Of a stretch of 64,000 nt of DNA, positions 11,201 through 63,957 are shown piece by piece. Made by a program: the position numbers and the translations under genes. Within the stretch, counting starts at the first letter, position 1. Each line of letters starts with the position of its first letter. The notes under the pieces were generated by a model. The model worked only from the letters and a program-made list of their open reading frames with translations. It did no database searches and had not been told where the DNA came from. This stretch comes from Naegleria gruberi. Lineage: Eukaryota. The stretch is from assembly GCA_000004985.1 (NCBI GenBank), contig GG738860.1; one strand, written 5' to 3'.

Positions 11201-11231
11201 NNNNNNNNNNNNNNNNNNNNNNNNNNNNNNN
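2262..11231. other. Sized assembly gap of 8970 N. All ORF-track entries of the form 2130..13386 that consist of X residues are artefacts.
   Basis: Run of N. An isolated N also occurs at 2245. Confidence 1.
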
Positions 11232-17486: not shown

Positions 17487-17560
17487 TGCCTCCCTTGGGA
17501 ATCGAACCCAAGACCTCTGTCTTACTAGGACAGCGCTACTGCCAACTGAGCTAGGAAGGC
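17487..17560 (-). tRNA. tRNA-Thr (anticodon AGU)
   Basis: Reverse complement is GCCTTCCTAGCTCAGTTGGCAGTAGCGCTGTCCTAGTAAGACAGAGGTCTTGGGTTCGATTCCCAAGGGAGGCA. Anticodon stem CTGTC/GACAG with loop CTAGTAA gives AGT, and acceptor GCCTTCC pairs with GGGAGGC. Confidence 0.9.
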
Positions 17561-22312: not shown

Positions 22313-22383
22313 GGGGGCGAGGGGGAATCGAACCCCCGGCCACAGCTTTGGAGGCTGCGATGTTACCATTACACCACCGCCCC
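22313..22383 (-). tRNA. tRNA-Trp (anticodon CCA)
   Basis: Reverse complement is GGGGCGGTGGTGTAATGGTAACATCGCAGCCTCCAAAGCTGTGGCCGGGGGTTCGATTCCCCCTCGCCCCC. Anticodon stem GCAGC/GCTGT with loop CTCCAAA gives CCA. Confidence 0.9.
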
Positions 22384-39562: not shown

Positions 39563-39690
39563 ATTCTCTGGAGAATAAAAACAATTGTATTTTTAAAGTA
39601 AAATAACCTTCATAAAATTGTTGTAATAAAGGAAATGAAATCATTGTTTTGGGAAAAGGAAACCAGGTTGCTAAACACCAGATAATTAAA

Positions 39691-39779
39691 AGGCGACTGA
39701 GGGAATTGAACCCTCGACCCTCAGTTATCTCAGCATTACTGCCTACAAGACTGATGCACTACCACTGTGCTAAGCCGCC
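39691..39779 (-). tRNA. tRNA-Thr (anticodon UGU) with a 17-nt intron at the canonical position between 37 and 38
   Basis: Reverse complement is GGCGGCTTAGCACAGTGGTAGTGCATCAGTCTTGTA[GGCAGTAATGCTGAGAT]AACTGAGGGTCGAGGGTTCAATTCCCTCAGTCGCCT. The exonic sequence closely resembles eukaryotic tRNA-Thr(UGU): anticodon loop CTTGTAA, variable loop GGGTC and discriminator T. Confidence 0.8.
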
Positions 39780-40497
39780 TTACATGTAACTGAAAACATT
39801 TTAACATACATACAATATCAACACCAACCTTTATCGGCCAAGTGAACCAACGTTGAATGTTTTAATGATAATAATATTCTTATAGGGAAAATAATGTTAT
39901 GAAACATCAGATTTATACTTTAGATATTGCTTGAATAATGTATGAAGATATGAAATTCACACCACCACCTTGGAAATATGATTTTTCAGAAGCTTTTTGG
40001 ATGGAACACAGATCTTGAAATCAAATCGATTCACTTTCGTTTCATTTGACTATGGTGGAATGAAATTTTTGATAAGTGTAAAAGTTGAACTTTGGATTTG
40101 AAAATAATATTATTGCTTGCCATTCAATTCGTTTTGATTTGTTCATTGATTGTATTGGTATTAATCTGTTCCATGTCTATTGTGTGAAAGAGAGAAGGAA
40201 AGGAACAAGACACCACAATAAATTGAATACTCAACATTCAATAGACAATTTGTAAATTAAAATTGATCAAAACGTACTTTACACTATTTTACACTATAAT
40301 TTCAATTAAACTTTTCAAATTCCTTTCCAAAATTATTATTCCGAATATTTCTCCCATTTCCTTTCCTTGAAATTACAAAACATCACAAAAAAATAGAACA
40401 AAGTTGCAACTAGATTTATTTAATTTCTTCTGCATGAAACTCTATCTCTCAAGATCCTTCTAGAAAAAAGAGAGATCATCACAAGTAGATAAAGACA

Positions 40498-42237: not shown

Positions 42238-42320
42238 GCCCGCGTAGCAGAGTGGTCAAATGCGTAAGACTTAAGATCTTATCCCGAATGGGTTCGTGGG
42301 TTCGAACCCCACCGCTGGCA
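42238..42320 (+). tRNA. tRNA-Leu (anticodon UAA), class II with a long variable arm
   Basis: GCCCGCGTAGCAGAGTGGTCAAATGCGTAAGACTTAAGATCTTATCCCGAATGGGTTCGTGGGTTCGAACCCCACCGCTGGCA. Anticodon stem TAAGA/TCTTA with loop CTTAAGA. D-arm and T-arm as in eukaryotic tRNA-Leu(UAA). Confidence 0.85.
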
Positions 42321-42438: not shown

Positions 42439-45400
42439 TCAGTTTGATTTAAGGAGCGATCTAAGCTTTCCAAGTAGGTTAATCACAAAACAGATTAAGA
42501 ACGGAATGGTCCATATAGTATCATCCTGTTCCTCCTCTTTTTTGGTTGTTTTCACAGTTGTGGGATAATGTTGATCATCCTCTTGCCTGCCGTGTTGATG
42601 AGATTCCTTTTCCTTCTCTCCAAAATATTCCTCAGGTTCCTCAATATCATCATCCTCTTGGTCAACTTCCTGGTCATCCTCAATATCTTGTTCTTCCTTT
42701 TTTTGAGCTTCTAATGTTTCTGGATCTTCTGAATAGAGTGTTGGAAAATGCTTACAAAAACACCTTAATGACAAGCCAATATTAATCACATATTCCAAGT
42801 AAGATTTACCATTCATTTCAACCACTCGAGGCTTAAAGTATTTACCATTAATTGGCAACATCATGGAATTATACATATTGTCTAACTGAATTCTCTTACG
42901 ACGTGTTGACTCTGGAAGAAAATCTGAATTGGAGGAGAAGGCTTTGAGATTCACAAGGCAAACATTATTGCTAATAGAGTTGTAGTCAAAGGAACATAGA
43001 GTTAATTTGATTGTATCCTGGAGAGTTTTGTTTTCTAACAGCTCAGTAGTGCCGCCACTCTTTTCATTCATATAAATTCCAAGTGCAAATTTAAATCCAA
43101 AAACTTCGAATTGATCTCCAAATATCCAAGTTTCATGAGTTTTCATACAGACACGAATGACACATGTTTGGATAAGGGTTGGGAACTTGTTTGCCAATGT
43201 GTAAATAAATGAAGGATAATTGGTTGAAGAAAGGTCCTTTCGTCCATTATGAATAATTTCCTCATTAAAATCTTGAATTGGTTCGAATTGTAAATTTCTC
43301 AATCCTACCACAAATTTGTAAACTAGAAAATCATCATTTCTTGAATAAGGTTCTAAGAATTTCTTTTTTACATGATAGCTCATGACCCTTCCATTCCAAT
43401 TAATTTTTCTGCTATTGGAAAAGTATGTTTGGGGTTCGAAATCATAATTACACATGACAATATCCACCATTCCCCTTTGCTTAGTTTCTGGTTTAGTTTG
43501 TTGTAGATTAATTTTGAAACTGTCTTTAGTGGAATATAGCACGTATTTAGGATTTGGAATAAACTCAATACACCATTCGTATCCTAGTGCATTAAAAGTT
43601 GTGCTTGTATACTCTTCATTTCTCAAATATTGATCAAGCAAGGGAACTTTAACCAACACTTCATTCAATATAAATTCCTTTCTATTAAACAAATTTGTGA
43701 AATATTCCAAATCTTTCTCAAGAATTGGTGATGTCTCAGTACTAGGTTTAAGAACCTGAATTGTCTTGTGTGAGTGTTTGTAAAATTCATGCCCAATTAG
43801 AAACTCAATAAAACTATTCATTATCTTCTTGGCTGGAATGAAATGTTTTAGAGCTCCTTTTGCAATTTTCACAATATCGAACCCAGAGAATGATGTTAAA
43901 TCCTGTTCTCCACTGATAAAATCAGTAAACAGTCTTTCGATAATGGCACTCGTCTCATCTGGAATGTCATTTTTCAGCATTAAATAACTAAGAGTCTCAA
44001 TAACTGTAGAGTAGTATCCCAAATCAAGTAAAATTGGTGCAAACTGGCAAAAAGCTATTGAGGATCTTCTGGAAATGTTCTCCAAATATCCAATTTCAAC
44101 CTTGGTGAATTCAATTTTCTTTTCATTCCACATCTTGTTAATTACTGGGAGAATTGAAGTGGCATCCCTAAGGTATGAATCATATCTGTAAGATTTGAGG
44201 AAAAGTTTGCAAATTTCGTCTAGATTTGGAATATCTTCAATTTGGTTTCCAAAATGGTGAAAAAGGCCAATAATAATTACATATGCTTCTTTCATATCTT
44301 GTGATTTCACTCTTTCCTTCACAGCTGACACTACTGAGTCAATTTTCGTATAGTCAAGTTTAGGATATAAAAGATTGCGCTTATCCATTTTTTGAGTCTT
44401 TCGTATTATGCAAACCTTTGGTGTTTCCTGACAAAATATGGAGAATTGTGAACCTAGTACTGAATCACTGAAGCAATCCCAAAGCAAAACCCTACAATTC
44501 GTAAACTTTTTCAAATGTTCAATAGTTTCTAATGTGAGATCAGTATTGTATATAACAATGAGATCGTCCAATTGATAAGACATTGGTATAATTTTCTCAA
44601 AGAACCCATCTTGTAATTTTGAATTTTCAAATGAAAGTTTTTGTAAATTGACTGCTGATAGTAACATGTCAGAGAATCCACGTTCCATACCAGTTATTTC
44701 TCCACTAAATTTGATGGTGAGTAGAAATTTTGGGAGCTTACATTGAGAATAATCATTAATCATTTCAGGAACATGCAAAATTAAACTATGTAAATTGGAG
44801 AAATTTGTCAATTTGGAGAAGTGATGAATGTTTCCATTATTCAGTTCCAACTGGAGATACTTCATAGTATCCTGTGGCAGCATATCAACCAATGATGCAC
44901 AACTATTATTTGAATGGAGCTTTTCCAATTTGCATTCTTTCATTGATTCTAATTGCTTTCGAATAAAAGTATTTGTGGATTTATCTTCACCATTTACCAC
45001 CAATTCCACCAAGTTTTCACATTCAAATTCTACATTATCAATGGCATTCTTCCCATAGTTCCAACTCAGCTTTTTCAAATCTTTTGTAATGAAAGACTTG
45101 ACAATATCAATATAGTCATCACAATCAAAATTTCCGATTGTTAAAGAATGCAGAGAAAGATTTTCATGTAATTTGGCAAGTATTTCCATGTCTGTGAGAA
45201 TAACATGTAAGGATTCCTTAAAGTTCAATTGTAAAGTTGCTAAATTAGACAGCTTGCTCAAACAATTCAATAATGGATCAATCACACGACTAGCATTTGA
45301 TATTGAAAGTGTGTTGATTGTTAGATTTTCAAGAGTTGGTGCAAGATTACTCAAATTCATGTGCCAGTTTGTGAAAGTTTGACTCGTTGTGAAATTCCAA

Positions 45401-46298
45401 ATCAATTCGAGAGTCTTCAAGTTTGGAAATGAGTTTGATTTTTCGAATACTGAATAGAAAGGACCATGGATTGCATAATCATTCTTATAATTATAATCAT
45501 AAACCAATTCCATTTTCTTAATTGTTTTAGAATATTTTGAAAGTGCCATCTTGGCTGCTTTGTCATTATACGGTATAAATTTCAATTCTGTTAAATTCTC
45601 ACACTGCTCTGTAAATTGTGAAACAACCTTATCAGTTATCATCACAGTTTCAAAGGAAAGGCATTCTAGTGATCTAGGAAAGTTCATTTTCGTGCAACTC
45701 AAATCATCTTTATAATATGAATGGCCCAGGTAAGTGAAAGATATTTCAAGTTTTTTGAGATTTTGAAATTCATTGAAAAATTGAAAACTATCCAATTCCA
45801 AATCACAAACTGATAAACTTTGTAAAGTTTCCAATATTGGGCTCTTATTAGAAATCCATTTGGAAATAAAACCTGCACAATTATTCAACAAACCCTTCCC
45901 AAATTTTAATTCTTCAACTTTCTTCAACTTTCCAATTTCAACCAATCCAAAACCTTGAAATTATTAAAATTCTTGCAAGAAAATTCACTCAACTTACCAT
46001 CAACCCGAATATTATTTAATTTTCCCTCGAAAAAATTACAATCAATTCTTGTCAAATTTTCCAATTTGATCAAATAATTGTCAATTATTTCACACAAAAT
46101 CCGATCGGTGGCTGAGGAACGAATTGTAAAGGTTGTCTTGTTGTGGATCAGATAATTATTCACCCATTCGAAAAAGTGTGTTGAAACCAATCTCAAATTA
46201 AATAAATGGTGGTTTTCTTTCAAGAAGCAAAACACATGTTGAATGAAGAGTTCTGCAGGTAATTCCAACAGTTTCATTTTTTTCTTCTGGAATTGCAA
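42439..46298 (-). CDS. Large F-box-like/LRR protein of about 1270 aa. Two exons, 45998..46298 and 42439..45953.
   Basis: A 44-nt intron at 45954..45997 has a GTAAGT donor and a ..TTTCAAG acceptor, joining ...NNIRVD|G|FGLVEIGKLKK. The N-terminus is F-box-like (LPAELFIQHVFCFLKENHHLFNLRLVSTHFF). LRR-like repeats run throughout. Confidence 0.7.
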
Positions 46299-46431
46299 GA
46301 TTCAATTTCAAAGATTGATCAAAAGTTGCAATTATTTGATGATAAATTGATCAATAAAGTTATTTCTTATTATCTATCAAATTCTGATGGAAGGAGACAA
46401 GCAATTTGCTCTATAGAAATGGAGCGGTATT

Positions 46432-48158
46432 TTATTCATCTTCATCACTTATGCAATACCAATTCATTTCATTCCATTTTCTCAATTTTTTAAATCCAAA
46501 AGAAGTAATCAATGAGCTTTCCTTGATACCAATATTTCTCAATAATTTCAGTACTGTTTCATTTGTTTCTGCATTAAAATTATTCCATAAATAATCAATA
46601 TCATCATCAGAAAAGTAATATCCCAAACGATTCAAATTCTTGAAGGTTTCATTCTTTGCCAATATTTCAACAAAATCAATATCAACCACTTGCTCCTCAT
46701 CAATTTCATCACCTTCATTATAAACTGAAAGATCTCGTAAATTTACGAGAATATTTGATTTGGCAAGATATTCTAAATCTGATATTGTTGATGGCATGGA
46801 CAAGTGTAAAGTATTAAGGTTGGAAAAGTATTGGGAATCTGAATAAAATAACTTGAACCCATTCAAGCAACTATTGGCTTTGTGAATTTCCAAACATTCA
46901 AGAGATTTTGCGGTCGAATTAATGACACTAACCAAATGGTCAGAACCGTGTTCTAGTTTGACTTTTCCATTTATGAGTAATATTTGGAGATTGCTAATAT
47001 AGTTGGATTGCATAATTTCATCAATATCACGAACTTGACTCAAAAATTCTAAATATGTCATATTACTCAATGTTTCATTCTCTGAAAGTGATAAAACTCC
47101 CTTATTCGATATTTGAAACAGTGTTAAACTTTCTAACATTGGCATTTTGAACCTACAAACAAGATCGGTAGCAAAGGATGAACAATCAAAAGTTAATGAT
47201 ACTAAATTTGGACATTCGATATTGATTTCCTCATTTTCCTTCTCACTACGCAATTCGAACCAGTCTCCCTCATCAATAGTACAATATCTCAGGGATGGAC
47301 ATTCAAAAATCTCGAACAACTCTGCAAAAGAACAAGTGGCAGTCAAATTGTGCAATGTCAAATATTCTAATACTGGTAATGATGCAATGTAAGAAATTCC
47401 ACTCGCATCCATATTTTCCAACTCCAAACTCCTCAAACAATTAGTATATCTGTTGACGTATAGAGCTACATTATTCAAGCGTTTAGTACCTCTAATTGTC
47501 AGTGATGTTAAATTGTGCAACAAGTGTGAATCCAGATACATTCTTCCCTCTCCTGTCATCCAAAAATCCAAACGTTTAATATTCATAATGTTTACATTAT
47601 CCAAATCTGAGAATAAGAGTTCAGATTGCAAACAGAGCTTTAGGCTTTTTAAATTTCCAAATTGTTGAATATATCAGCAGGTCTGTCATATTCAGAAGAT
47701 GTTATTATTGCATTTTCCATAGAGTTGAAATATTTAGATTTTACAAACTCAATCAAATCTGGTCTATTCTCATCTAAATAATAATGGAATTGCCTCAAAT
47801 GTCCAACTGCTCTATAAAATTGTTTAGAAACAAGTAAAAGCTTAAAACCCTCCAAATTTGGCAAATAGGATAGAATGACAGCAATTACATCATCACAGGC
47901 ATTTTCCATCACATTTTGCCGATGTTTCTTCTTTGAATTTTTTAACTTTGCTTCATCACAAATATTTGAATATTTTCTCTTCCGATCCAGTATTTCCAAT
48001 TCCAAGTGTAAATGCTTAGTACGTTCCCTAGCCATCAGGAGTTGAAATATTTGATCGGAGTTCAATCCCACATCATTCAATGCTACCAATTCATTGTTAA
48101 GATTTCCATCAGAAATATTTTTTACATCTTGATTGGATAAAGATGGTTGTAGAGACAT
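46432..48158 (-). CDS. F-box/LRR protein with a -1 frame disruption near 47632-47650, so it is either a pseudogene or an assembly error
   Basis: The upstream ORF 47649..48302 carries the F-box VIAVILSYLPNLEGFKLLLVSKQFYRAV. The downstream ORF 46432..47631 carries LRRs. No GT donor is available before the stop, so an intron cannot repair the break. Confidence 0.5.
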
Positions 48159-48274
48159 TTTTTTGGAATTGTTGCACTTTTTACAATAACAATTTATTTT
48201 TAATGCACAATAGAAGTTCATATTTAAATTTGAATATAAAAATAGAATTTTATAATAGAATTTTATAAAAAAAA

Positions 48275-49426
48275 ATGAGCGATTTGGCATCAAGCACAAC
48301 ATCCTATCATAGAGTTACACAATTTAATTCTCCTCATGCCTCCAATGTCCTTCCACAAATATTGAAACTCTTATCGGAGATTGAAAAGGAAAATCGAGTA
48401 AAAATTTTGTATGTTTGTGATGCTGGATCGAGAGCCATGTCGATTCATGATCAATCGGAGTGATTCTAGTGATTATGATGTTAGATTTGTATATGTTCAT
48501 CCAGTTGATTGGTATTTGAGAGTTAGAGATGAAGTTGATTTGGAAATTAGAAAGAAGGTGATGATTAAATTGGATCATTTGAAAGGAGATGAAACTGAGA
48601 TTGATTTTGTTGGATATGAATTTAGGAAAATGTTGAGCTATACTGCAAAATCAAATCCTACAGCAATGGAATGGATGGTTCAGAGTGAAATTATTTATTA
48701 TTGTTATGATGAAAAGTGGTTGAAAGAAATGAAAGAATTTTGGAATGTTTATTATTTTAATTTAAAGACAATTGGTATGTTCTTTCATTTGCTTTTTATT
48801 TACACAATTGATGTTTTGAATAATTTATATTTTACATATTTGGAAATATAGTATATCACTATTTGAATATTGCAAAGGATAATTATTGTGATTATTTAAG
48901 AAACAAAGCAGAAGTGAATAGAAAAAAGTACATTTACGTAATGAGATGTTTATTGTGGGTTGAGCATGCCAAACTTTCTCACTTTTCAGCTTGGAAAAAT
49001 GGACAAACTGTAGAAAAGATTACTCCAATTATACCTGTACCACCTTTCGATGTTAATCTTCTACTTTCTGAAACATTGGAAAAACAAAAGGAATATTTGG
49101 AATATCCTGAAAAGGATAAGTATCCAATACAGTTCAATTTCTTTGATAAGCAAACCCAAGCTCTTGAACAATTGAATTATTTGATTGATAGAAAGAAGGC
49201 TAGTTCTGGGCAATGGACTAAACAACCTAGAATTCCAGTATTAGACGATTGGCTCATGTTTCTTAGAATGGAAGAAAAAGTTTTTGCAGACAAGATTCTT
49301 TCACTAGAGAAGAGAAAGATTGATTGCATTACACAAGAAGAAAAGAACTCACTCCAACAACGATTCGATTCTTTATTCTATGAGCATGTTATGGGTTTTG
49401 ATAAGATTCCATCTGTATTAGAATAA
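48275..49426 (+). CDS. Nucleotidyltransferase-like protein of the Pol-beta/MNT fold. It has one frame break near 48440-48465 and one 77-nt intron at 48775..48851.
   Basis: The hG[GS]-x9-13-D.D signature is LYVCDAGSRAMSIHDQS|SDSSDYDVRFVYVHP, split across a +1 frame change. The GTATGT intron restores ...KTI|V|YHYLNIAKDNYCDYL. Confidence 0.5.
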
Positions 49427-49474: not shown

Positions 49475-50893
49475 TCAATGGTTAACTTCTCTGGTATTTT
49501 CAAGATCGATATCATAGTCAACTTCTGGCACTTCTGATTCATGATCTTGGTATAATTCAACTTTTTCGCTTTCTCTACGAACCATGAACCTTTCATCTCC
49601 TTCAAGACCGAATTCATTGGTGAGGGATTGTTCACGTTCTTGATTATTGGACTCATTTGACTCTTCGCTGTTATCACTTACTGATTGATCTTTGTTTTCA
49701 TCACCCTTGTCTTCGTCATTTGAGTAAGAAGGAGCATTTAATGAACTTGTATCCTTAATGTTTTGATTTCCAGATTCAACTTGGTCATTTGTTGGAGATT
49801 CAATTGAAACACTTGGTTTAGTAGACAGAGTATCCATTCTTGTGTTTGGAGGAAGAGGCATTCCACTTTCGTCAACCGTTTTGCTGACCTCCTCTTCTGA
49901 TTGTTGTGGAACTTCTCCTGGTGGAGAAATAGGCTTTTCATCCTCTTTCTCTAAATTTGTGCTGTCACTTGTCTGGGAATTAATTGGTGCTTCATTTTCT
50001 CCCAAGTTGATGATATTTGGTTGAAGAGGCTCTGGATTAATCATTGGAGGAAGAGGCATTCCACTTTCGTCAACATTTTTGCTGACCTCTTCTTCTGATT
50101 GTGAGGATTGAGCTGGTGGAACTTCTCTTGGTGGAGGAATATGCTTTTCCTCGTTAACTGAATCTGTACTCTCATTGGCCTGGGAATTACTACTACTATC
50201 GTCAGTAGCTGAACCTCTTTCCCTTGGAAGAGGTTCTGTTTGAGAAGAGCTTGTTTCCTGTGAAGGTGAAAGCGCAATTTCTGGTTCAGCAGTTGCTTTT
50301 TCTTCCTTTGGTTGTGATGCTGTTGAAGGATTTTGATTCTCTTCATTCTTAACAGGTTGTTGTTCTGAAACAGGTCCATCATTTGATTTTTCAGATTCTT
50401 CCTTTGGAAGAGGTTCAGAAGTTGGTTCAGATGACTTTGATTCATTTTCAATTGATTTTTCTGAAGGTTTCTCTGGAATTGGTTCAGATTTCAAACTAGC
50501 ATCCTGCTTAATTTCAGTATTTTGCTTTTTGTTGGTAGTCCATAAATTACACATTTGAGAAAGCTCCCTTTTTGACATACCAAGCCATTTCTTTTCCTTT
50601 TTAATGTCATCCTTCAATTGTTGTAAATCTAAAGCGTACTGATTCTTCAACAAGGTATTCTTACTTCCCGAGTGAATGTTTTTAATCAATCTATTAAGAA
50701 CCCTATTAGCTCTAATCATTTTCTTCATTTCATGCTTACTTCGCATTCTAATATCTAATAATTTACATGCGTACTCATTCTCATCTGATACAACAGCACC
50801 CTCAACCATGCAAATCATCAGCATCAGTATGATGCTCATCAAGAACAGAACCAACACCCCAACGGCCCTCTTACCACCCTCTTTTCCCTTCAT
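49475..50893 (-). CDS. Secreted or membrane-anchored acidic S/E/P-rich repeat protein of 472 aa
   Basis: The N-terminus carries the hydrophobic segment VLVLFLMSIILMLMICMV. An internal near-duplicate segment EVP..QS.EEEVSK.VDESGMPLPP appears twice, with the DNA copies near 49841-49935 and 50040-50135. Confidence 0.6.
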   Translation of the reverse strand: MKGKEGGKRAVGVLVLFLMSIILMLMICMVEGAVVSDENEYACKLLDIRMRSKHEMKKMIRANRVLNRLIKNIHSGSKNTLLKNQYALDLQQLKDDIKKEKKWLGMSKRELSQMCNLWTTNKKQNTEIKQDASLKSEPIPEKPSEKSIENESKSSEPTSEPLPKEESEKSNDGPVSEQQPVKNEENQNPSTASQPKEEKATAEPEIALSPSQETSSSQTEPLPRERGSATDDSSSNSQANESTDSVNEEKHIPPPREVPPAQSSQSEEEVSKNVDESGMPLPPMINPEPLQPNIINLGENEAPINSQTSDSTNLEKEDEKPISPPGEVPQQSEEEVSKTVDESGMPLPPNTRMDTLSTKPSVSIESPTNDQVESGNQNIKDTSSLNAPSYSNDEDKGDENKDQSVSDNSEESNESNNQEREQSLTNEFGLEGDERFMVRRESEKVELYQDHESEVPEVDYDIDLENTREVNH

Positions 50894-52431: not shown

Positions 52432-52788
52432 TTAGATTTCACCAAAGGTGTTTTCTCCATTGTAGGTTACATACAAGAAACCATCATCGTCCTTTTGTTC
52501 TTCATAAAGTTGACTCATCAGTGTGGCGCTTGGTGGAAGAACGTTATTAACGAAAATGAAAATATTTGTTGTTGAATCAATCTTGATACGTTTACGAATA
52601 ATATACACAAATTGTGCCACTGTAAGATCGGCAGGAACTAAATATTTCTTCTTATCAATATCTGGGAAATTTGATTTATCAGCCTTTTCGCAAATGACTG
52701 GAATACGATCAGAGTAACGTTGTCTAATTCTAGAGGCTTCAGCTTGTCTCTTTTCAAAGGTATTTTCTGGGTCTTCCTTATATTTCAT
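52432..52788 (-). CDS. atg8: Autophagy-related ubiquitin-like protein Atg8 (GABARAP/LC3 family)
   Basis: The 118 aa align with the Atg8 family along their full length: [25 protein letters not shown]...[24 protein letters not shown]...[40 protein letters not shown]. Confidence 0.9.
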
Positions 52789-53169: not shown

Positions 53170-54885
53170 TTAAATAAATTCAAAGAATTCCCGCTCCAAA
53201 TCTCCCAAACTTTCTGAAGGTTTAAAAGTAGGAATGTTTTCTGAAACAGTTTGTGAAATTTCTTGAAGGTATCTCAGTACCGATTGTAACCTTTCATCTC
53301 TTTGTTGAAGAGGAATAGCACCATTCGAAACTCCTTGAGGAGGCAGTATGGAATTGTAATTTGGCATTGTGATAATGAGTGGATTCTTTTGTCTTTCCAA
53401 TATTTCTTCCATTTCTCTTACAATATTAGAGCATTTGTTTTTGATTCTCAAATATTTCTGAGAGAGTGATTGAAGAGCACGCAAATCCTTTTCCAAAACT
53501 TGAAAATAATCGACATATAATGATTTACCATTGGTTATGAGTGGAAGATTGTTTTGTCTCAACCCAGATTCAATTAATTTACAAATTTCAATGTGAATTT
53601 CACTAACCAACATGATGATAATCCCAGCATCAGAATAAATGTATCTTTGTTATTCAATACAAGATGTGAGATACATGCTGAATACATGCAATAAACTTAC
53701 TTGAAAAGTTCATGTTCAGTGGACAGTGTAATTTTGAGAGCCATTTCCTCGACTAGACTCCTCAATTCTGGAATATTTCTGTAGAAGGATAAGCTTGTAG
53801 AATTGTAAGTGAAAATAATGTGTAATTGCATAAATTCTGTAAACCTTTCAGTTCTACAATCATTAAATAGTTTAAAATGTTCTGATTTGAGTGAAACGAC
53901 AACTTTGAATACAAAATCAATTACTTGTTTGAATAGCATACAATTTTCAGATGTGACTTTTGCTGTTTTCATATAATCTAATGTTCCAGTTGTTAATAAA
54001 TTATCCAATTTCTGATCTACAGACAATTCCACAATCCTTGGCATGTGTTCAATAAACTCAGGTAATGCACTAATCAATTCATCCATTGACTTGGACAAAA
54101 AGACAGTTCTCCTCTCTAAATTCTTACATATAATATCAGTTGTATCTTTCAAGCATTCACTCACAAAATTTTCAACCATTGACAAGTAAATCTTTCTCTT
54201 TAGAATATCTCCCTTTCCGTTATAAAATGCAGACAATTGCTGACATGCACAATACAAGTAATAATTCTGGGAATGATCCACAAACAATTTCCCAATTTCC
54301 ACTTCAGCATTCTTTGCATACTGATCAGCCAAATCCAATTCAGCTCTCAATTGATGATGAATAGCCTTTATCGACAAGTAAAATGCATAAATACAATTTA
54401 CATCTTCCAAATTTGAAATAAACTCATTTTCCTCCAATGAAATCTTCCTCTTTGAAATGTTCTCTATCTTTCCCAGATAATTATTCAGAAAATGTTCTAA
54501 AACGCCACGTTTAATAACTGGATGTCCTACACATATAAAATCAAAATATTCATCAACAAAAGTTCCATCACCTTCTTTTTTCTTTTTGAGATTTTCTTGA
54601 TATAATTCCGAAGCTCTTCCTCTTTTTTTAGGTTCTTCATACTATTTAAATATTTAATTATTGAATAATTAAATAAATGTAATGGAATTAACTACTAACC
54701 ACACATTCTAAATTTCTGGAAACACAATAGGAACATTTAGGCTCCAACTTGTCGCACTTTTTGTGATTTCTTTTGCATTGGACACAGGATGGCGTTGAAT
54801 TATTGTTGGATTTTTTCTTTTTTTTAGAGTTTGATGATGAGGAACAAGTTGAAGGAGAGTCGTTAGCATTCTCAAATTCCGACAT
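53170..54885 (-). CDS. Zn(II)2Cys6 (Gal4-type) binuclear-cluster transcription-factor-like protein of about 533 aa. Three exons, 54700..54885, 53701..54641 and 53170..53644.
   Basis: Exon 1 carries CVQCKRNHKKCDKLEPKCSYCVSRNLEC, which is C-x2-C-x6-C-x6-C-x2-C-x6-C, preceded by a basic K-rich patch. The first intron, 54642..54699, runs GTTAGT...AAATAG. The second, 53645..53700, runs GTAAGT...ACAAAG. Together they join ORFs 54688..54885, 53697..54437 and 53170..53613 in frame. Confidence 0.65.
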
Positions 54886-55397
54886 TTTTTTTGAATCATG
54901 AAAAATTTTGTAACAAATTCAGATATTTTCAAATAGCAAATTAACGTTAACTTTAGAATTAATTGTTGGAATATTACCTTTGAATATTCATATTAAAACC
55001 AATTTCTATGTAATTGCTCTTATAAAAGTATCACCTTATTCATTGACCTTAAATTCTATTGATTCAACTATACTCTATCCTTTACAATAATTCTAAACCA
55101 AAATATTCCATGGCAGTAAATGCGGCCAAACTTTACAACGTTCAGCCAAATGAACTCTGTTGGCCAAAATATTTCGAATTCGAAAGACATGGAAAAAATG
55201 GTGCGCGCTCATTTTTTCTTTCTAAAACAAAAAAAGCGTAAAACCTTGCAAGTGCGCTTTAAAGAAATTTCATATTTTAAAAAAACTGAATTCATCACTA
55301 ACCATCATCAAAAACTTCGGAGAAAATTTTGCTCTAGTTGATGAAGAATTTAACGAATAATAATACGAGAAGAAATCTACTGAATACAATAACGAAA

Positions 55398-56671
55398 ATG
55401 AAGGCTATGATTATTGAGGATTATTGTGAGGAACCAGATTTTAAATTGGTTACCGATTTTGAAAAACCTAAAGTTTCATCTTCCAAGCAAGTTCTTGTGA
55501 ATTTAAAGACTGCTTCTGTCAATCCTGTGGATTACAAGTTGAGAAAGGGAGCAATGAAGATGGCTGCATCTATGAAATTCCCAGCAATTCTTGGAAAGGA
55601 TGGTTCTGGTGTTGTGGAGCAAGTCGGAGCTAAGGTTGATAGATTTAAAGTGGGAGATCGTGTGACTGGATTCTTGCCAAATAACAAAACTGGAAGTTAT
55701 GCTGAGTATGCTGTGTTTGAGGACGATGAATTGACACTCTATCCTGACCAATTGACTCACCAACAAGCAGCTGCATTTCCATTGGCTGGTAAGTTTCAAG
55801 CTAATTATTTTAACTAATTTGGAAATTTATCTTGTTTAAATATAATTGGAATTTCAATTAATAATTGATCACAGGATGTACTGTTTTGGAAATGTATAGA
55901 AGACATCCACTTATTGGAGAAGTTTTAGATAGAGAAGGTGAAAGTGCCTACAAGACTGGAAAGATTTCTGATGCACTCACTGGTACAAAGAAGGATTTGA
56001 AAATTCTCATTATTGGAGCATCTGGCGGCACTGGTAGTATTGCTGTAATGGTTGCTAAACAATTCTTGAGTAGATATTTCAACACCAAGATTTATGCAGT
56101 TTGTTCAGAGAGAAATTCTCAATTTGTTACTTCTCTTGGAGCTGATGTCGTAATTGATTATAACAAGACCTCTGCAAAGGCCGGTGCTCACACTACACAC
56201 GCATCTGGTGGTTTGGCAGATAGTATGAAGAGTATTTGTCAATTGATTAGTGAAACACATGGTGACAAGTATGTGGATATTGTTATTGACACAGTTGGCG
56301 GATATTATTACTATGAGGATGTTTGTCAACATTTGGACTGTAAATCAGCTGAAAAGGGAGTTACATTCTCAACCATTTCTACACCTAATCCAAACGAATA
56401 TACTTTGACCTTCTCCAGCTTGGTAAAGATTGGTTGTTACATTTCCTCAAACAAACTCAAATCAATGTCCAGCTGCTATCCATCCTATCATATGGTATTT
56501 CTTGGAAAGAATGCAAAGGATATGAATTTACTTTTGAATCACATTGTTGTTTCAAATGATGCCTACAAATTATTGCCTCTCATTCCATTCTCATTGGAAA
56601 ATACTAAGGATGCTCACTTACAAATGCAATCTCAAAGAACAGTGGGTAAAATCATCATTGACATTGAATAA
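55398..56671 (+). CDS. Medium-chain dehydrogenase/reductase (quinone-oxidoreductase/zeta-crystallin-like). Two exons, 55398..55788 and 55875..56671.
   Basis: The GroES-like N-domain carries VLVNLKTASVNPVDYKLRKG and GKDGSGVVEQVGAKVDRFKVGDRV. The Rossmann-fold motif is ILIIGASGGTGSIAVMVAK. An 86-nt intron at 55789..55874 runs GTAAGT...CACAG. Confidence 0.8.
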
Positions 56672-57239: not shown

Positions 57240-59236
57240 ATGGCTCCTCAAAGTAATAAGTATTCTAACAAGGTGGATGATGAAGATTATGAAGATTCAT
57301 TTTCTGCAGCAATGATGGATGATACCGGAGGTGATAATTCATATGAAAATAATAGGCTTCAGCTGGAAGAAACAGGAGGAAGACTACACATTGACGATCA
57401 CCATCTACAAGAAACAGAATTACAAGATGTGGATTTGGTAAAAAGTTCAAATTCTAGTTCTGCCAACAGTAGAGAACCATTGAAAGAGGATGATGTGGCG
57501 GAGTTGAAAGTTATGACAAATACAAAGAAGAGATTGTCACCCAAAGAGATTTTAGCAAATATGAAATCAGTCTTGTTGACAAAGGCCTTTTTACAAACCA
57601 TGTTATTGAACTTTGCCATTTTGTGCATGTGTATTTCGTGTAAGTTTTACTGTTGAATTTCATAGTAATGTAATTGATTATTATCCATTTCACATTTTGG
57701 GCAAATTATTTCATCATCTTCATCATCTGTTGATCAACATTATTTCAATACAATGAAACAGCTAGTAGTGTAGGATCACTTATCAATGTTTTTGCCAAAC
57801 AAACCAATACAGACCGATCTGAAGTTGGTATTGTTTTCACAATCAGAGGTATCGGAGCACTTGTGACAACACTTATTGGAGGATTTGTCATGGATGCAAT
57901 GAAGAAATTTATGGACAAGAAGATTAAGGATCATCACAAGAGAACTCTCTATGAAACTCTTACAAATTATGCATTGATTATTGTGTCCATTCTCATCATG
58001 ACTCTTGCATCTGCATTGATGCCTTTTGGTTCTTCATTGTGGTCTCTATGTGCAATCTTCTTACTGTGGGGTGTAGGGCAGGGATATTTAGGTATTTGTG
58101 CTCAAGCTTTATTATTCAGTATTTGGAATGAGATGAAGATTAATGTCACACCATTCTCACAATTATTCCACTTTTCTGCAGGTCTTGGTTTATTCTTTGG
58201 ACCATTTACTGTTTTGGTTGTGAATAGTATTTTGGGAGTTGATAATTCACAAGTTGTAGTTCCTGCTGATGAAGGTGCTGAATCATTGTCATCCATTTTA
58301 CAAAATAATGTGACATTTATTAATTCTACCATTGGAAATTCTACTGAGGGAACACCAGCTGGATTTATTGAAGGAACACTCATTTCCAAGTCTGTTTTGG
58401 GAACTAACTTTATTGTCTGTCTCTTGTACTTGCTTTCCATTGGTTTGTTCATTATTTACATGGTCTACATGTGGATGAAGAGAAACGAAATCTCTGACGA
58501 TGTTAAACCAATCAATGATGGAGAAGAGGATGACACTGCTTCTGTTGGTAGTATTGAACATGGAGAAGCAAAGAAACCAAATAATTCTAGAACTGTATTC
58601 CTTACCAAGCTTTTTGTTACCATTTTGGTTGCTTTGGCTCTTTTATCATACTGTATGGCTGAGAGCACTTATGGTAACGTTATTTATTCATACTTGACTG
58701 CTATGGAATTGGCAGATGACAGTGAAGCAAACATGATCAATTCTGGTTTTTGGCTGTTGTTCACAATTGGCAGAGGTATTGCCATTCCAATTTCATATTT
58801 CATTCCACCATTTATCATGTTACTTGTTGACTTTATTGGAATTACGATTAGTGTTTCGTTATTATGGATTTTCTCTACCAATATTTCAGTTTTGTGGGTT
58901 GCAAGTCTCTTGTTAGGTCTTTCCATTGCCAGTTTGTATCCAACAACCATTTCAATTCCATCATCAGTAATGAATTTGGAAATTACTGGCTTAATGACCA
59001 GTTTGATGGTTTTGGGAGGCTCTGGAGGTGCAATGTCTGGTCCATACATTACCCTTGCTCTCTTCAAGAAGATTAGTCCAAAAGTTATCTTTGCAACAGT
59101 TACAATCAGTGTAGTTTGTTTGGCCCTCGTTATTATTTCTCTATTCATTTTCAGCCGTATTTACAATAGAAGAAGAAATACCAAAGAAGTTGCCACTCAA
59201 TCTGAAAAAGTTCATGAAGTTTCTCCAGTTGAGTAA
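57240..59236 (+). CDS. Major-facilitator-superfamily transporter (MFSD4-like) with an acidic N-terminal extension. Two exons, 57240..57639 and 57762..59236.
   Basis: A 122-nt intron at 57640..57761, running GTAAGT...AAACAG, joins TM1 (FLQTMLLNFAILCMCIS|SSVGSLINVFA) to a 12-TM body carrying the MFS-type loop motifs GIVFTIRGIGALVTTLIGG. Confidence 0.65.
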
Positions 59237-59314: not shown

Positions 59315-61198
59315 ATGAAAGAAAACAAACATTGTGATGAAACAACTCCTGGAGGATCATCAGGAGAAGAAGGAATTTCAGGAAAATACTCTCAAATATT
59401 AATTGCCATCCTTCCCACATTTCTAACGAGTATTCTCGATGTTTATATTGATATGCACTTGACTAAATATTACATGGAAGATATTTGTAAATATTATTCG
59501 GATAAATCATGTATAGAGGCTTCAAGGTTTGGATTGGTAAATTCCTTCATCCGATCATTAAGTTTAATAACAGATTTCTTCAGTGCAACCTTGATTGATT
59601 CAAGTAGCCTTGGACAACAAACTCTCTTGATGATTTGTGCACCAATTTATTGGATGAGTATTGTTGGATTGTTTTTGGGACCTTCATTGTATAGATCGGA
59701 GATGATTCCCACATTTATTTGGTTTATTATTTGTTCATTATTGAAGAATATGGTACCACTGAGAGTTTTATATGATACATCAATTGTGAGAATGTGTAAA
59801 TTGTGGAATGTGAAGGATAGATCGGATTTATTTTCTGTGAAACATCAAGCTTCAATGTATGGAGGAGTTTTGGGAGCATTCTTGCCATCGCTGCTGAGAT
59901 TTATATTATCTTCGTTGACTTTGAGTGAAAATCAAATTACAAGAGTATATATCATGATTGGAAGTTTACTAATTATTGGATCTTATGTATTCATGTCGAG
60001 TTTCTTTCGAAATTCAAGAGAAATGAATAGTTTCAAAAAGGAAAAAACAGAGGAAAAGAAATCAGTCTCATGGATTCCTGCATTGAAAAAGTGCTTTGAA
60101 AATAGAGCCTTTGTAGCTCTACTTTGCTTGTTTAGTTATGAAACATTGAGAGGATTATTGTGGAATGGTCTATACATTTTCTACATTACTAAAGTATTGA
60201 ATTTGGAGGGAGCTAATTTTGATTTTTGGACTGGAGTTCTCAACACGACTGGAATGATATTTGCCATGATATTCTCCCCACTATGGCAATATATGGCTTC
60301 CAAGTATGGTAATTATAATACTTGGCTAGTTTCATATCTAGTTCAGATACCTATTGGTGTTTTTGTGTACTTGTTTGTGGATTATTCGAGTACAGAACCT
60401 CAAATTTGGAATTATCTTCCATTCTTTGTCTTGCTGACAATTACTGGAAGGTCTAGCGGATTCCTTCTCGATAGTATCAAGACTACCGTCTTTGATTATG
60501 ATGAATTGAGAACTGGAGAGAGAAGGGAAATTTCTTTGGAGGCCACCTGGTCGTTCCTACCAAGATATATTGATTTAATATCTAGCTCTGTATCTTTTGG
60601 AATTTTATCATATTTCAATACTTATGGACTGTCTGTTGAGGAGAGAACATCTTTGAAGAGTGGAACTTATACCCTAATGGGAAAACACTCGATATCTGTG
60701 CAAGCTGCTCTACTCCCAAGCTTGACCTCAATAGTATGCCTTTTCCTCATGTACAGATTCCCAATCAACGATCAAAAACATGCCGAAATTTTGGATTTAA
60801 TCAGGAAGAGAAAGGAAGAGGATAATCACTCTAAAATTATTGATCCATTAACAGGAGAGGAAATCATAATCCATGAAGAATCCGACAAGAATTCTCAAAA
60901 AATCAATAAGAAATCAAGAGAGGAAGAGGATTATTTCTTTACCTTTGAATTGGACATGATAAAGAGTAACACTAGTTGGTATGGTAAATGGTTGGTAGAA
61001 ATTGAGATTATCACCACCATTTCCATGACCATTCTCTTTGGAATATTTGGCTACAAATTTATAATGAATGTTTTATTTGGTGAGGATATCTACGCAAGTT
61101 TATTCCTTTGGTTAAGCTCTGTAACATTTACCTTGTCCACATTCTTCCTCTCCAGAATAAGTGTTGCTAAGAAATTGAGGAAACAAAATTGTTTTTGA
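59315..61198 (+). CDS. Polytopic membrane transporter that resembles the GPH/MFSD2 cation-symporter family
   Basis: A 627-aa single-exon ORF with about 12 predicted hydrophobic helices and a central loop. The family assignment is tentative. Confidence 0.6.
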   Translation: MKENKHCDETTPGGSSGEEGISGKYSQILIAILPTFLTSILDVYIDMHLTKYYMEDICKYYSDKSCIEASRFGLVNSFIRSLSLITDFFSATLIDSSSLGQQTLLMICAPIYWMSIVGLFLGPSLYRSEMIPTFIWFIICSLLKNMVPLRVLYDTSIVRMCKLWNVKDRSDLFSVKHQASMYGGVLGAFLPSLLRFILSSLTLSENQITRVYIMIGSLLIIGSYVFMSSFFRNSREMNSFKKEKTEEKKSVSWIPALKKCFENRAFVALLCLFSYETLRGLLWNGLYIFYITKVLNLEGANFDFWTGVLNTTGMIFAMIFSPLWQYMASKYGNYNTWLVSYLVQIPIGVFVYLFVDYSSTEPQIWNYLPFFVLLTITGRSSGFLLDSIKTTVFDYDELRTGERREISLEATWSFLPRYIDLISSSVSFGILSYFNTYGLSVEERTSLKSGTYTLMGKHSISVQAALLPSLTSIVCLFLMYRFPINDQKHAEILDLIRKRKEEDNHSKIIDPLTGEEIIIHEESDKNSQKINKKSREEEDYFFTFELDMIKSNTSWYGKWLVEIEIITTISMTILFGIFGYKFIMNVLFGEDIYASLFLWLSSVTFTLSTFFLSRISVAKKLRKQNCF

Positions 61199-62332: not shown

Positions 62333-63957
62333 TTAACCAGATGTAACAAGTTGGACAACGTCTTCATCTGCCAATTCGTGACTCAAACCAACTCTTTGAG
62401 GTGTATGTTTAGCTCTATTTGTGTTCATATTATAGAATAACGGAATATAAGAAGTAATAGGAGAAAAAAATAGAATAAATAAAAATATTGTAAAAAAACT
62501 TACGATTTGCCCCACACAATAGCATATTTAAAGTTCTTCTTCATGTCCTTGTGTACGCTGTTACAGATATCTTCAATTGTGGAACCTTCTCTCAAAACGA
62601 CTGGATCTTTGAAATCTGGAGCACAACCTCTCTTCTTGGTATAAGCTCTAACCAATCCCAAGTGTTCCCAAATTTGTTCAATCAAGTAATCCAAATTCAA
62701 ATCCCAGTTACATGATATCACAACAGAGTTTTCCCTCTTGGCCAACTTGTCAACTTCTTCCAAAGTTATGGTATCGACCTTGTTGTAAACACAGAGACAC
62801 TTAATATATTGTCTGTTACCTTCCACCAAATCAATAAAGTCATCAATTTCAGCATCGTATCTGATAACAACTTCAGCATTGTGAATCTTTTGTTCTCTCA
62901 AGATGTCAGAAACAAGCTTTTCAGTAACACCCTTAGTTTGTTTACAAGTTGTTGTAAATCTGAGACCACCAGTTTTAAGTGGTTTGAAGTACATGTTTGG
63001 TTTTGGTTTGTTCAATCTGATACCAACACTTTCCAATTCTTGTTCCAAAAGATGTTTGTGAATTTCACCCTTTGAGGCATCCAACATCATCAAAACCAAA
63101 TCAGCAGTTCTTGCAGTAGCAATAACTTGTTTACCTCTTCCTTTACTATTTTCCATAAAGTCATTAGTAATATAATCAATTTTTAAATTATCCAAATATT
63201 TCAGCAAATAGTTTTGATGATAATTCAAGTACATTCCGTTTTCAATAGAGTAATCATATTATCATTTGTTATAATATTATTATTATTGTTAATATTGTTA
63301 ATATATTGATAATGATAATAAACAAACATACCCTTCAGCAGCACCTTCAATAATACCAGGCAAATCCAAAAGTTGGATTCTTGATCCGTTATATTCAATA
63401 ACACCAGGAATACAAGTCAATGTAGTAAATTCATAGGCACCAGTTTCAGATTCAGTTCCTGTAATCTTATTCAACAATGTAGATTTACCAACAGATGGGA
63501 AACCAATCAAAGCAACACGAGCATCACCTGCTTTTCTGGCTTCAAATCCATCACCACCTCCACCACCTCCTTTCTTTTCAGAGTCAATGAGTTGTGAACG
63601 TACTATCAATTTATCAATTCAATAATCAAGTTGAAATTTTGTATCATTCCATATGTGATCGGATTGTTGTTGTTGTTGATATTCATATTGTTGAGTGTTA
63701 ATACTTACACCTGGCCAATCTAGCCTTCAACAGACCAATGTGGTATTCAGTGGCCTTGTTCTTTTGGGTTTTGTTCATTTCATTTTCAATATCTATGATT
63801 ATCATCCGATAAATATATTTAAATTAAATTCCAAATCAACAAAATTATTATCAGTGTGATAATATATCCATCACATTATTTTCCATCACATCATTAATTA
63901 AATATATTACCGAAACAAAAGTAACAACTCACCCTTTATCTTTTCTAGAATGCCCAT
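62333..63957 (-). CDS. Developmentally regulated GTP-binding protein (DRG, Obg-family GTPase with a TGS domain). Five exons: 63933..63957, 63709..63792, 63332..63602, 62504..63145 and 62333..62414, giving 367 aa.
   Basis: Introns are 63793..63932 (140 nt, GTGAGT), 63603..63708 (106 nt, GTAAGT), 63146..63331 (186 nt, GTATGT) and 62415..62503 (89 nt, GTAAGT). The spliced product reads [42 protein letters not shown]...[20 protein letters not shown]...[27 protein letters not shown]...[33 protein letters not shown]. The length of 367 aa matches that of DRG1. Confidence 0.85.

Follow-up and report, generated by a model that had tools for sequence, protein, structure and literature searches.

Zinc clusters of the Zn2Cys6 type bind two Zn(II) ions and recognise CGG or CCG triplets, for the most part by occupying pairs of half-sites as dimers (PMC2246632). 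Zinc-cluster regulators that also bear a middle homology region (MHR) have been described as unique to fungi, and the only MHR solved experimentally is that of Cep3 (10.64898/2025.12.09.693112), a protein of Gal4-family architecture which dimerises via its helical domain 1 and possesses an acidic patch (PMC2246632). Zinc-cluster proteins are also found in amoebae, with 22 in Acanthamoeba castellanii and 3 in Dictyostelium discoideum (PMC4053784); our literature search found no paper discussing Zn2Cys6 proteins in Naegleria. Here we analyse a locus on the minus strand of a 64,000-nucleotide (nt) stretch of contig GG738860.1 from the Naegleria gruberi assembly GCA_000004985.1; this whole stretch is referred to below as the window. 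We consider it about 80% probable that the locus is an intact three-exon nuclear gene of N. gruberi NEG-M whose product is a 533-amino-acid (aa) sequence-specific DNA-binding regulator of the Gal4/Zn2Cys6 class.

Gene structure, zinc cluster and paralogues

On the open reading frame (ORF) track the locus appears as three unconnected ORFs (65, 246 and 147 aa). The original prediction had said that the track alone would report three small proteins, and had joined them, by way of two short introns, into one product of about 533 residues. The positions of both introns and the frame of that product stand up to splice arithmetic and to alignment with paralogues. Removal of the introns, which have canonical GT..AG ends, yields a coding sequence of 1602 nt that specifies 533 aa and a stop codon, with no internal stops (Table 1). 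The proposed ATG is the earliest in-frame start following a stop. Exon 2 remains open over 313 codons, for which chance would give a probability of ~5e-11 at the local composition (stop probability ~0.073 per random codon). Two features of the first junction also depend on splicing: Tyr63, which lies two residues past Cys6 and is encoded by the opening codon of exon 2, exists only in the spliced product, and the Pfam Zn_clus match (residues 33-69) spans the junction.

The nearest database relative is N. gruberi NAEGRDRAFT_75644 (P0001, XP_002669386.1, 549 aa; E 1.9e-110, 41% identity, 92% coverage) and a second paralogue, NAEGRDRAFT_73161 (P0004, XP_002671856.1, 530 aa), is 40% identical over its full length. 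In exon 2, identity with these paralogues is 45% and 41%, and in exon 3 it is 34.7% with the former over residues 376-470. Both align with the window protein without gaps over both splice junctions. At junction 1 (marked by a slash) the window protein reads ECV/YEEPKKRG and the paralogues ACAYNEPKKRG and ECNYVEPKKRG, the Cys6-x-Y-x-EPKKRG spacing being the same in all three; at junction 2 it reads ELFK/YIY, the paralogues EYFKYSV and EYFKCCS, and from FK to the next conserved [IL]H motif there are 15 residues in each of the three proteins. The NAEGRDRAFT_73161 gene has the same two intron positions and phases as the window gene, with different intron sequences. Its available DNA (L002) begins within an intron ending in aatag/TAT GTG GAA CCT, which places the acceptor at the same codon boundary, and at 958-999 contains a 42-nt GTAAGT..TAG intron past TTC AA/, matching the position of window intron 2; the annotated NAEGRDRAFT_73161 protein uses those junctions (EYFK/CCSAEM).

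Exon 1 encodes a Ser/Lys-rich N-terminus, the basic run K21-K25 and the entire six-cysteine cluster, C34-x2-C37-x6-C44-x6-C51-x2-C54-x6-C61 (residues 34-61), which is the sole such C6 motif in the six-frame translation of the whole window. The PF00172 (Zn_clus) hidden Markov model (HMM) matches the full protein with 36.6 bits (E 4.8e-9) and its N-terminal 86 aa with 39.2 bits, against a gathering score of 21; falling below that threshold would have spoken against the original prediction of a Gal4-type cluster. The latter is thus borne out by Pfam, and its three-exon form by the gap-free paralogue alignments over the junctions and the introns shared with one paralogue. A phmmer search of PDB sequences matched the DNA-binding domains of LAC9, PUT3, GAL4, HAP1, Pho7 and LEU3.

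The cluster fits the published Zn2Cys6 definition, CX2CX6CX5-12CX2CX6-8C, for which the accessory residues are a Lys (or Arg, His or Gln) between Cys2 and Cys3 and a Pro between the helices near Cys4 (PMC4053784 supplement). Both are present in the window cluster, which has a His/Lys run ahead of Cys3 (KRNHKK, with His41 at +4 after Cys2 and Lys42/43) and Pro49 at -2 of Cys4 between the half-clusters (EPKC). Gal4 itself has the arrangement CSKEKPKC, that is, the same 6-residue spacing with Pro at -2. Basic residues flank the cluster (K21-K25, EPKKRGR and KKKK), and exon 2 encodes the basic linker YEEPKKRGRASE..KKKK and most of an all-alpha domain. Over residues 34-70 the paralogue NAEGRDRAFT_75644 is 54% identical to the window protein, and the cluster in a structure predicted for it compares with Gal4 (1d66_A) at a Foldseek probability of 1.00 (TMt 0.59). 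By every measure that could be tested, this segment is a Zn2Cys6 DNA-binding domain.

Judged by its sequence, the window protein is a member of a heterolobosean (vahlkampfiid) multigene family that combines a Zn(2)-C6 cluster with an alpha domain. A profile of the exon 2 region run against 1.84 billion representative proteins gave 47 clusters at E<=1e-3, 18 of them at E<=1e-10. Zn_clus was present in 19 of the 49 family members scanned, many of the remainder being exon fragments. A word-indexed profile search using 49 sequences returned only 5 matches and was dominated by low-complexity words. The named members all belong to one of three species, N. gruberi, N. lovaniensis or Willaertia magna; besides the two paralogues above they include NAEGRDRAFT_80888, 74868 and 50776, N. 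lovaniensis C9374_003541, 003262 and 008216, and W. magna ABK040_008020. One further entry (P0002), an exon-2-only ORF from an ENA assembly, clusters at >=90% with NAEGRDRAFT_73161. The traits common to the family are the cluster, a Y-x-EPKKRG linker, an all-alpha domain of ~380 residues and an acidic tail. The 18 family clusters examined have without exception a Cys3-Cys4 spacing of 6 residues, a His four residues past Cys2 (+4) and a Pro at -2 relative to Cys4, and 17 of them have a Tyr two residues past Cys6. The resulting signature, C-x2-C-x3-H-x2-C-x4-P-x-C-x2-C-x6-C-x-Y, is borne by the window protein, in which the six cysteines, His41, Pro49, Tyr63, EPKKRG and the FKQV.DFVFKVV block are all intact.

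The original prediction held that a bona fide member in this genome would be notable. The member is real, but the claim has to be weakened: at least 7 N. gruberi paralogues, together with N. lovaniensis and Willaertia relatives, are already in public protein sets, and UniProt already calls several of them 'Zn(2)-C6 fungal-type domain-containing protein'. Because such genes already form a recognised family in this genome, the significance of this one is lower than had been supposed; on its own it is an ordinary member of the heterolobosean family, a new paralogue of genes already known.

Annotation in this family seems to be error-prone in places. The 716-aa N. gruberi protein P0055 (EFC42060.1), a public model that goes by the name 'TB2_DP1_HVA22 domain-containing protein', falls into one cluster with an exon fragment of the zinc-cluster family, and its gene model is probably a fusion. 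Three protein accession numbers separate it from the family member P0038 (EFC42063.1), on the same 381,539-bp scaffold, and this proximity suggests neighbouring paralogues and an error-prone annotation of the zinc-cluster family.

An out-of-frame ATG is found 14 nt upstream of the proposed start of the window gene (54897-54899, minus strand), where a 74-aa overlapping ORF runs from an earlier TTG. Either the transcript begins downstream of this ATG, or the ATG acts as a short upstream ORF.

The helical domain and proposed function

The region behind the cluster and linker was approached by way of structure prediction. An AlphaFold model of exon 2 built from 3 sequences had a pLDDT of 40.8 and was unusable. 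With the 34-sequence family alignment, the paralogue NAEGRDRAFT_75644 gave a model with a mean pLDDT of 81.1 and a pTM of 0.71, the pLDDT being mostly above 90 over residues ~100-480; the model is all-alpha apart from one small hairpin. In a fold comparison with this model, Cep3 of S. cerevisiae (6f07_A; values 18.6 and 315) and Cep3 of K. lactis (6p7v_B; 17.5 and 308) were followed by a TPR protein (12.0 and 283), the bulk of helical-repeat proteins lying at 8-10 in the first value and varying in the second. The ligand-binding domain of Upc2, another zinc-cluster factor, gave 9.3 and 144. The best global TM in Foldseek, 0.40/0.42, was obtained with chain 6fe8_A of the CBF3 core complex.

The window protein is 35-44% identical to the modelled region and large indels are absent, so its residues ~90-467 are likely to fold in the same manner as the paralogue model. 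On that model, the structural hallmark of an MHR, a Cep3-like all-alpha domain directly behind cluster and linker, is present, while the window protein lacks both a matching sequence profile and a fungal host, its host being N. gruberi, a member of the Heterolobosea. Because profile and host fail and the structure agrees, we label the protein Gal4/Cep3-like and do not file it under PF04082. From one predicted paralogue structure, the Pfam-invisible domain of the family appears to have a Cep3/MHR-type fold, and as far as this model is a guide the window protein probably works like a Gal4/Cep3-type regulator and is distantly homologous to it.

Several results weigh against this assignment, or against the gene model on which it depends. 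The window protein has no PF04082 or PF11951 match at E<=1; among the family, none of 49 members matches either profile at E<=0.01 and none of the 34 in the family alignment (A6) at E<=10. The search for a fungal_trans domain (PF04082) proposed with the original prediction was therefore negative for the window protein and for its family. The family profile found no Cep3 or MHR sequence among PDB sequences, its only hit being a weak TPR hint (IFIT1, E 0.064). The structure was predicted for the paralogue NAEGRDRAFT_75644 and not for the window protein, and no Foldseek E-value reached significance, that for Cep3 being 0.33 at a TM of ~0.4. In the 452-bp promoter, paired CGG/CCG half-sites are absent and the triplets occur at the background density of the window, which is a weak and indirect check. 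Exact look-up found no entry for the spliced product in the protein collection. Finally, 43-44-mers across both spliced junctions had no exact match in metagenome contigs, although this was a low-prior scan and does not constitute evidence against splicing.

Exon 3 completes the alpha domain and adds a variable spacer and a C-terminal tail of acidic/hydrophobic character. The final 30 residues contain 7 Asp/Glu against 2 Lys/Arg, and the protein ends in LEREFFEFI; the tails of the paralogues are alike (SSFDFDQFFD and DTFLDFEQLLR). On the analogy of Gal4-family acidic patches (PMC2246632), this tail is regarded as a candidate activation motif.

If the Gal4 family is taken as a guide, the cluster would bind two Zn(II) ions and read a CGG-like triplet in the major groove, and the protein would act as a dimer on paired half-sites, with the linker setting specificity. 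Dimerisation could take place through the helical domain, in the manner of Cep3, or through a short helix behind the linker. The alpha domain might accordingly be a regulatory, a partner-binding or a dimerisation module, and the acidic/hydrophobic C-terminus could serve to recruit the transcription machinery.

Origin, role and status of the gene

The most probable alternative bears on where the family came from. It may have reached the vahlkampfiid ancestor by horizontal transfer from a fungus, as opposed to descent from an ancient eukaryotic gene combining Zn2Cys6 and MHR. The complete fungal-style architecture (cluster, linker, Cep3-like domain and acidic tail) favours transfer, and so does the Gal4-like 6-residue Cys3-Cys4 spacing with P-x-C, amoebozoan clusters having 5 residues and a Pro next to Cys4; in addition, the named relatives are confined to Naegleria and Willaertia. 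On the other hand, neither PF04082 nor PF11951 detects the strongly diverged alpha domain in any member, which makes a recent event less likely, and introns and composition are of the host type. On balance we regard a transfer as rather unlikely. The question concerns origin only, and either answer is compatible with the functional model outlined above. Fungal contamination was considered as well and is ruled out by the flanking N. gruberi genes, by the host-like composition and introns, and by the presence of paralogues in three heterolobosean species.

The 28-40 residues of the zinc cluster itself carry little signal for a phylogeny. We put forward, tentatively, the view that the full 'fungal-only' architecture (Zn2Cys6, linker, Cep3/MHR-type alpha domain and acidic tail) constitutes a native expanded family of the Heterolobosea (Discoba), which either predates the fungi, possibly with roots in the last eukaryotic common ancestor, or stems from an old fungus-to-amoeba transfer, and of which the window gene is a member missed by annotation. 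In Amoebozoa, clusters alone have been documented; the Heterolobosea would have an expanded family with a Pfam-invisible, Cep3-like region behind the cluster, as far as the model can tell. The origin of the largest family of fungal transcription factors, ancient inheritance versus horizontal transfer, thereby becomes testable with structure-aware phylogenies.

As regards the role of the protein, the zinc cluster could be real and yet belong to a structural anchor on DNA or chromatin, similar to Cep3 in the CBF3 kinetochore complex, rather than to a gene-specific factor. Indeed the closest solved structure, Cep3, is that of a kinetochore protein and not of a transcription factor (PMC2246632), and target sites were not found nearby. 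However, Cep3 is the sole solved MHR structure, so a match to it reflects the fold class and not the function. The presence of at least 8 N. gruberi paralogues and of 47 clusters fits an expanded family of regulators and not a single-copy structural factor, and the acidic C-terminal tail is present. We therefore find an anchoring role very unlikely and prefer that of a sequence-specific regulator.

The absence of the gene from the public protein set raises the question of whether it is functional. Neither homology search, exact look-up nor exhaustive representative search returned a self-match for the window protein, although neighbouring genes were present, and the individual exon ORFs likewise have no exact entry in the protein collection. 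This absence, and the lack of a match for the spliced junctions in the metagenome contig scan, would be explained if the locus were a recent pseudogene or a silent paralogue. Such a degraded or silent state is highly improbable given 533 codons open over three exons (P ~5e-11 for exon 2 alone), canonical GT..AG ends on both introns and intact cysteines and family-conserved residues; moreover, the absence may mean no more than that a gene model was missed or an entry withheld. It is possible that the reference annotation of N. gruberi lacks the window gene. Alternatively, it may be annotated and yet absent from the collection searched, since the UniProt accessions D2VB32-34 fall between those of the flanking genes, D2VB31 and D2VB35, and could include it. 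As the gene model is invisible on the ORF track, the reference protein set would be worth checking, and the model worth adding if it is absent there.

The reading of the three ORFs as independent small genes or products of chance, which would make the spliced model an artefact, has only the ORF track in its favour and is effectively refuted by two full-length paralogues colinear over the three exons with identical spacing at both junctions, by the intron positions shared with one of them and by the Zn_clus match that bridges junction 1.

Genomic surroundings and known systems

The window gene is divergently oriented to a gene of the alcohol dehydrogenase (ADH) family, with which it shares its upstream region, and two MFS transporter genes follow in tandem (Table 1). 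The ADH gene has an 86-nt intron at 55789-55874 (GTAAGT..CAG), of the same type as those of the zinc-cluster gene, whose removal leaves a clean 415-aa frame. For the first MFS gene, the 138-aa ORF at 57240-57656 is a possible upstream exon. A regulator beside an ADH gene and two transporters recalls fungal layouts of a regulator plus its targets. As targets of this regulator, the adjoining ADH and MFS genes are nevertheless unsupported: in the neighbouring promoters CGG/CCG occurs at background density and pairs are absent.

Table 1. Positions of the zinc-cluster gene, its putative domains and the adjoining genes in the window
Feature	Position	Strand	Remarks
Exon 1	54700..54885	minus	186 nt, 62 codons; ATG at 54885
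Intron 1	54642..54699	minus	58 nt, GTTAGT...TAG, phase 0, 14% GC
Exon 2	53701..54641	minus	941 nt; residues 63-376, final codon split
Intron 2	53645..53700	minus	56 nt, GTAAGT...AAG, phase 2
Exon 3	53170..53644	minus	residues 376-533 and TAA stop
Zn2Cys6 coding segment CVQCKRNHKKCDKLEPKCSYCVSRNLEC (C34..C61)	54703..54786	minus	PF00172 match and cysteine motif
Predicted Cep3/middle-homology-like all-alpha domain	53371..54560	minus	~residues 90-467; intron 2 lies inside
Acidic/hydrophobic tail SESLGDLEREFFEFI, candidate activation motif	53173..53217	minus	by analogy with Gal4-family acidic patches
Divergent intergenic (promoter) region	54886..55337		452 bp, shared with ADH-family gene 55338-56671
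MDR-type alcohol dehydrogenase/quinone oxidoreductase (ADH_N and ADH_zinc_N_2)	55338-56671	+	two exons; divergent to the zinc-cluster gene
MFS transporters in tandem	57240-59236 and 59315-61198	+	MFS_1; MFS_2/sugar transporter NAEGRDRAFT_66074

Three unspliced ORFs of the window match N. gruberi NEG-M proteins exactly, all of them recorded on one 536,960-bp scaffold: ATG8 (52432-52788, XP_002678928.1), NAEGRDRAFT_79268 (49475-50893) and NAEGRDRAFT_66074 (59315-61198). The window has a GC content of 33-34% when its three runs of N are excluded; these runs, at 1030-1079, 2262-11231 (the largest, with 8,970 bases) and 12789-12960, are those of a gapped draft scaffold. The ENA 'metagenome' assembly ERZ929261 (run ERR1078381, PRJEB11402) contains DNA that is 100% identical to the window ATG8 locus including its flanks, as well as a near-identical exon copy of NAEGRDRAFT_73161 (same 90%-identity cluster), so that by sequence the ERR1078381 sample evidently holds N. 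gruberi or a near-identical strain.

Further away, two adjacent plus-strand ORFs in different frames (48411-48851 and 48863-49426) correspond to consecutive parts of Pfam RlaP (PF10127) and probably belong to a single gene that is interrupted by a frameshift or a short intron. RlaP is a nucleotidyltransferase of the DNA polymerase beta family from an RNA repair pathway, and the family is mainly prokaryotic; the locus is a possible candidate for lateral transfer. On the minus strand, 42439-48302 contains ORFs of 1168, 124, 399 and 217 aa which show at most a weak leucine-rich-repeat similarity and match no Pfam family past the cutoff. Possibly they represent the exons of a single large gene, or of two, of the leucine-rich-repeat type. 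A developmentally regulated GTP-binding protein (MMR_HSR1_Xtn and TGS) is represented by its C-terminal part at 62500-63234 on the minus strand, and its N-terminal exons must lie upstream, past an intron. Five tRNA genes are present, Asp-GTC (1724-1794), Thr-AGT (17487-17560), Trp-CCA (22313-22383), Thr-TGT (39690-39780) and Leu-TAA (42238-42320), of which Thr-TGT, being 91 nt long, may hold an intron.

Among known systems, the fungal Gal4 family (Gal4, Lac9, Put3, Hap1, Leu3 and Ppr1) shares with the window protein the CX2CX6CX6CX2CX6C arrangement, basic residues before Cys3 and a Pro between the half-clusters, and likewise the order of an N-terminal cluster, a linker, a large alpha-helical middle and an acidic C-terminus. 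In contrast to these proteins, the window protein comes from a discoban amoeba, its middle region is recognised by neither PF04082 nor PF11951, and it has no evident long coiled-coil dimerisation element past the linker. With Cep3 (subunit B of CBF3 in S. cerevisiae and K. lactis; 6f07, 6fe8 and 6p7v) the likeness is one of predicted fold, sequence identity being only 5-10% and a sequence-level match absent. Cep3 is a single-copy kinetochore protein of point-centromere yeasts, whereas the Naegleria proteins form an expanded family.

The zinc-cluster proteins of Amoebozoa resemble those of Naegleria in that bona fide C6 clusters occur in non-fungal amoebae, and the Acanthamoeba clusters, like the window protein, have a His at a conserved position between Cys2 and Cys3 (PMC4053784). 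They differ in having a 5-residue Cys3-Cys4 spacing with Pro adjacent to Cys4 (PMC4053784 supplement), while all 18 heterolobosean clusters have 6 residues and Pro at -2. The greatest similarity is with the NAEGRDRAFT_75644/73161 group, which shares end-to-end architecture, cluster spacing and signature residues with the window protein. The window gene is nonetheless a distinct paralogue, its closest relative reaching only ~45% identity in exon 2, and unlike it some relatives are longer (900-1300 aa) with long low-complexity N-termini.

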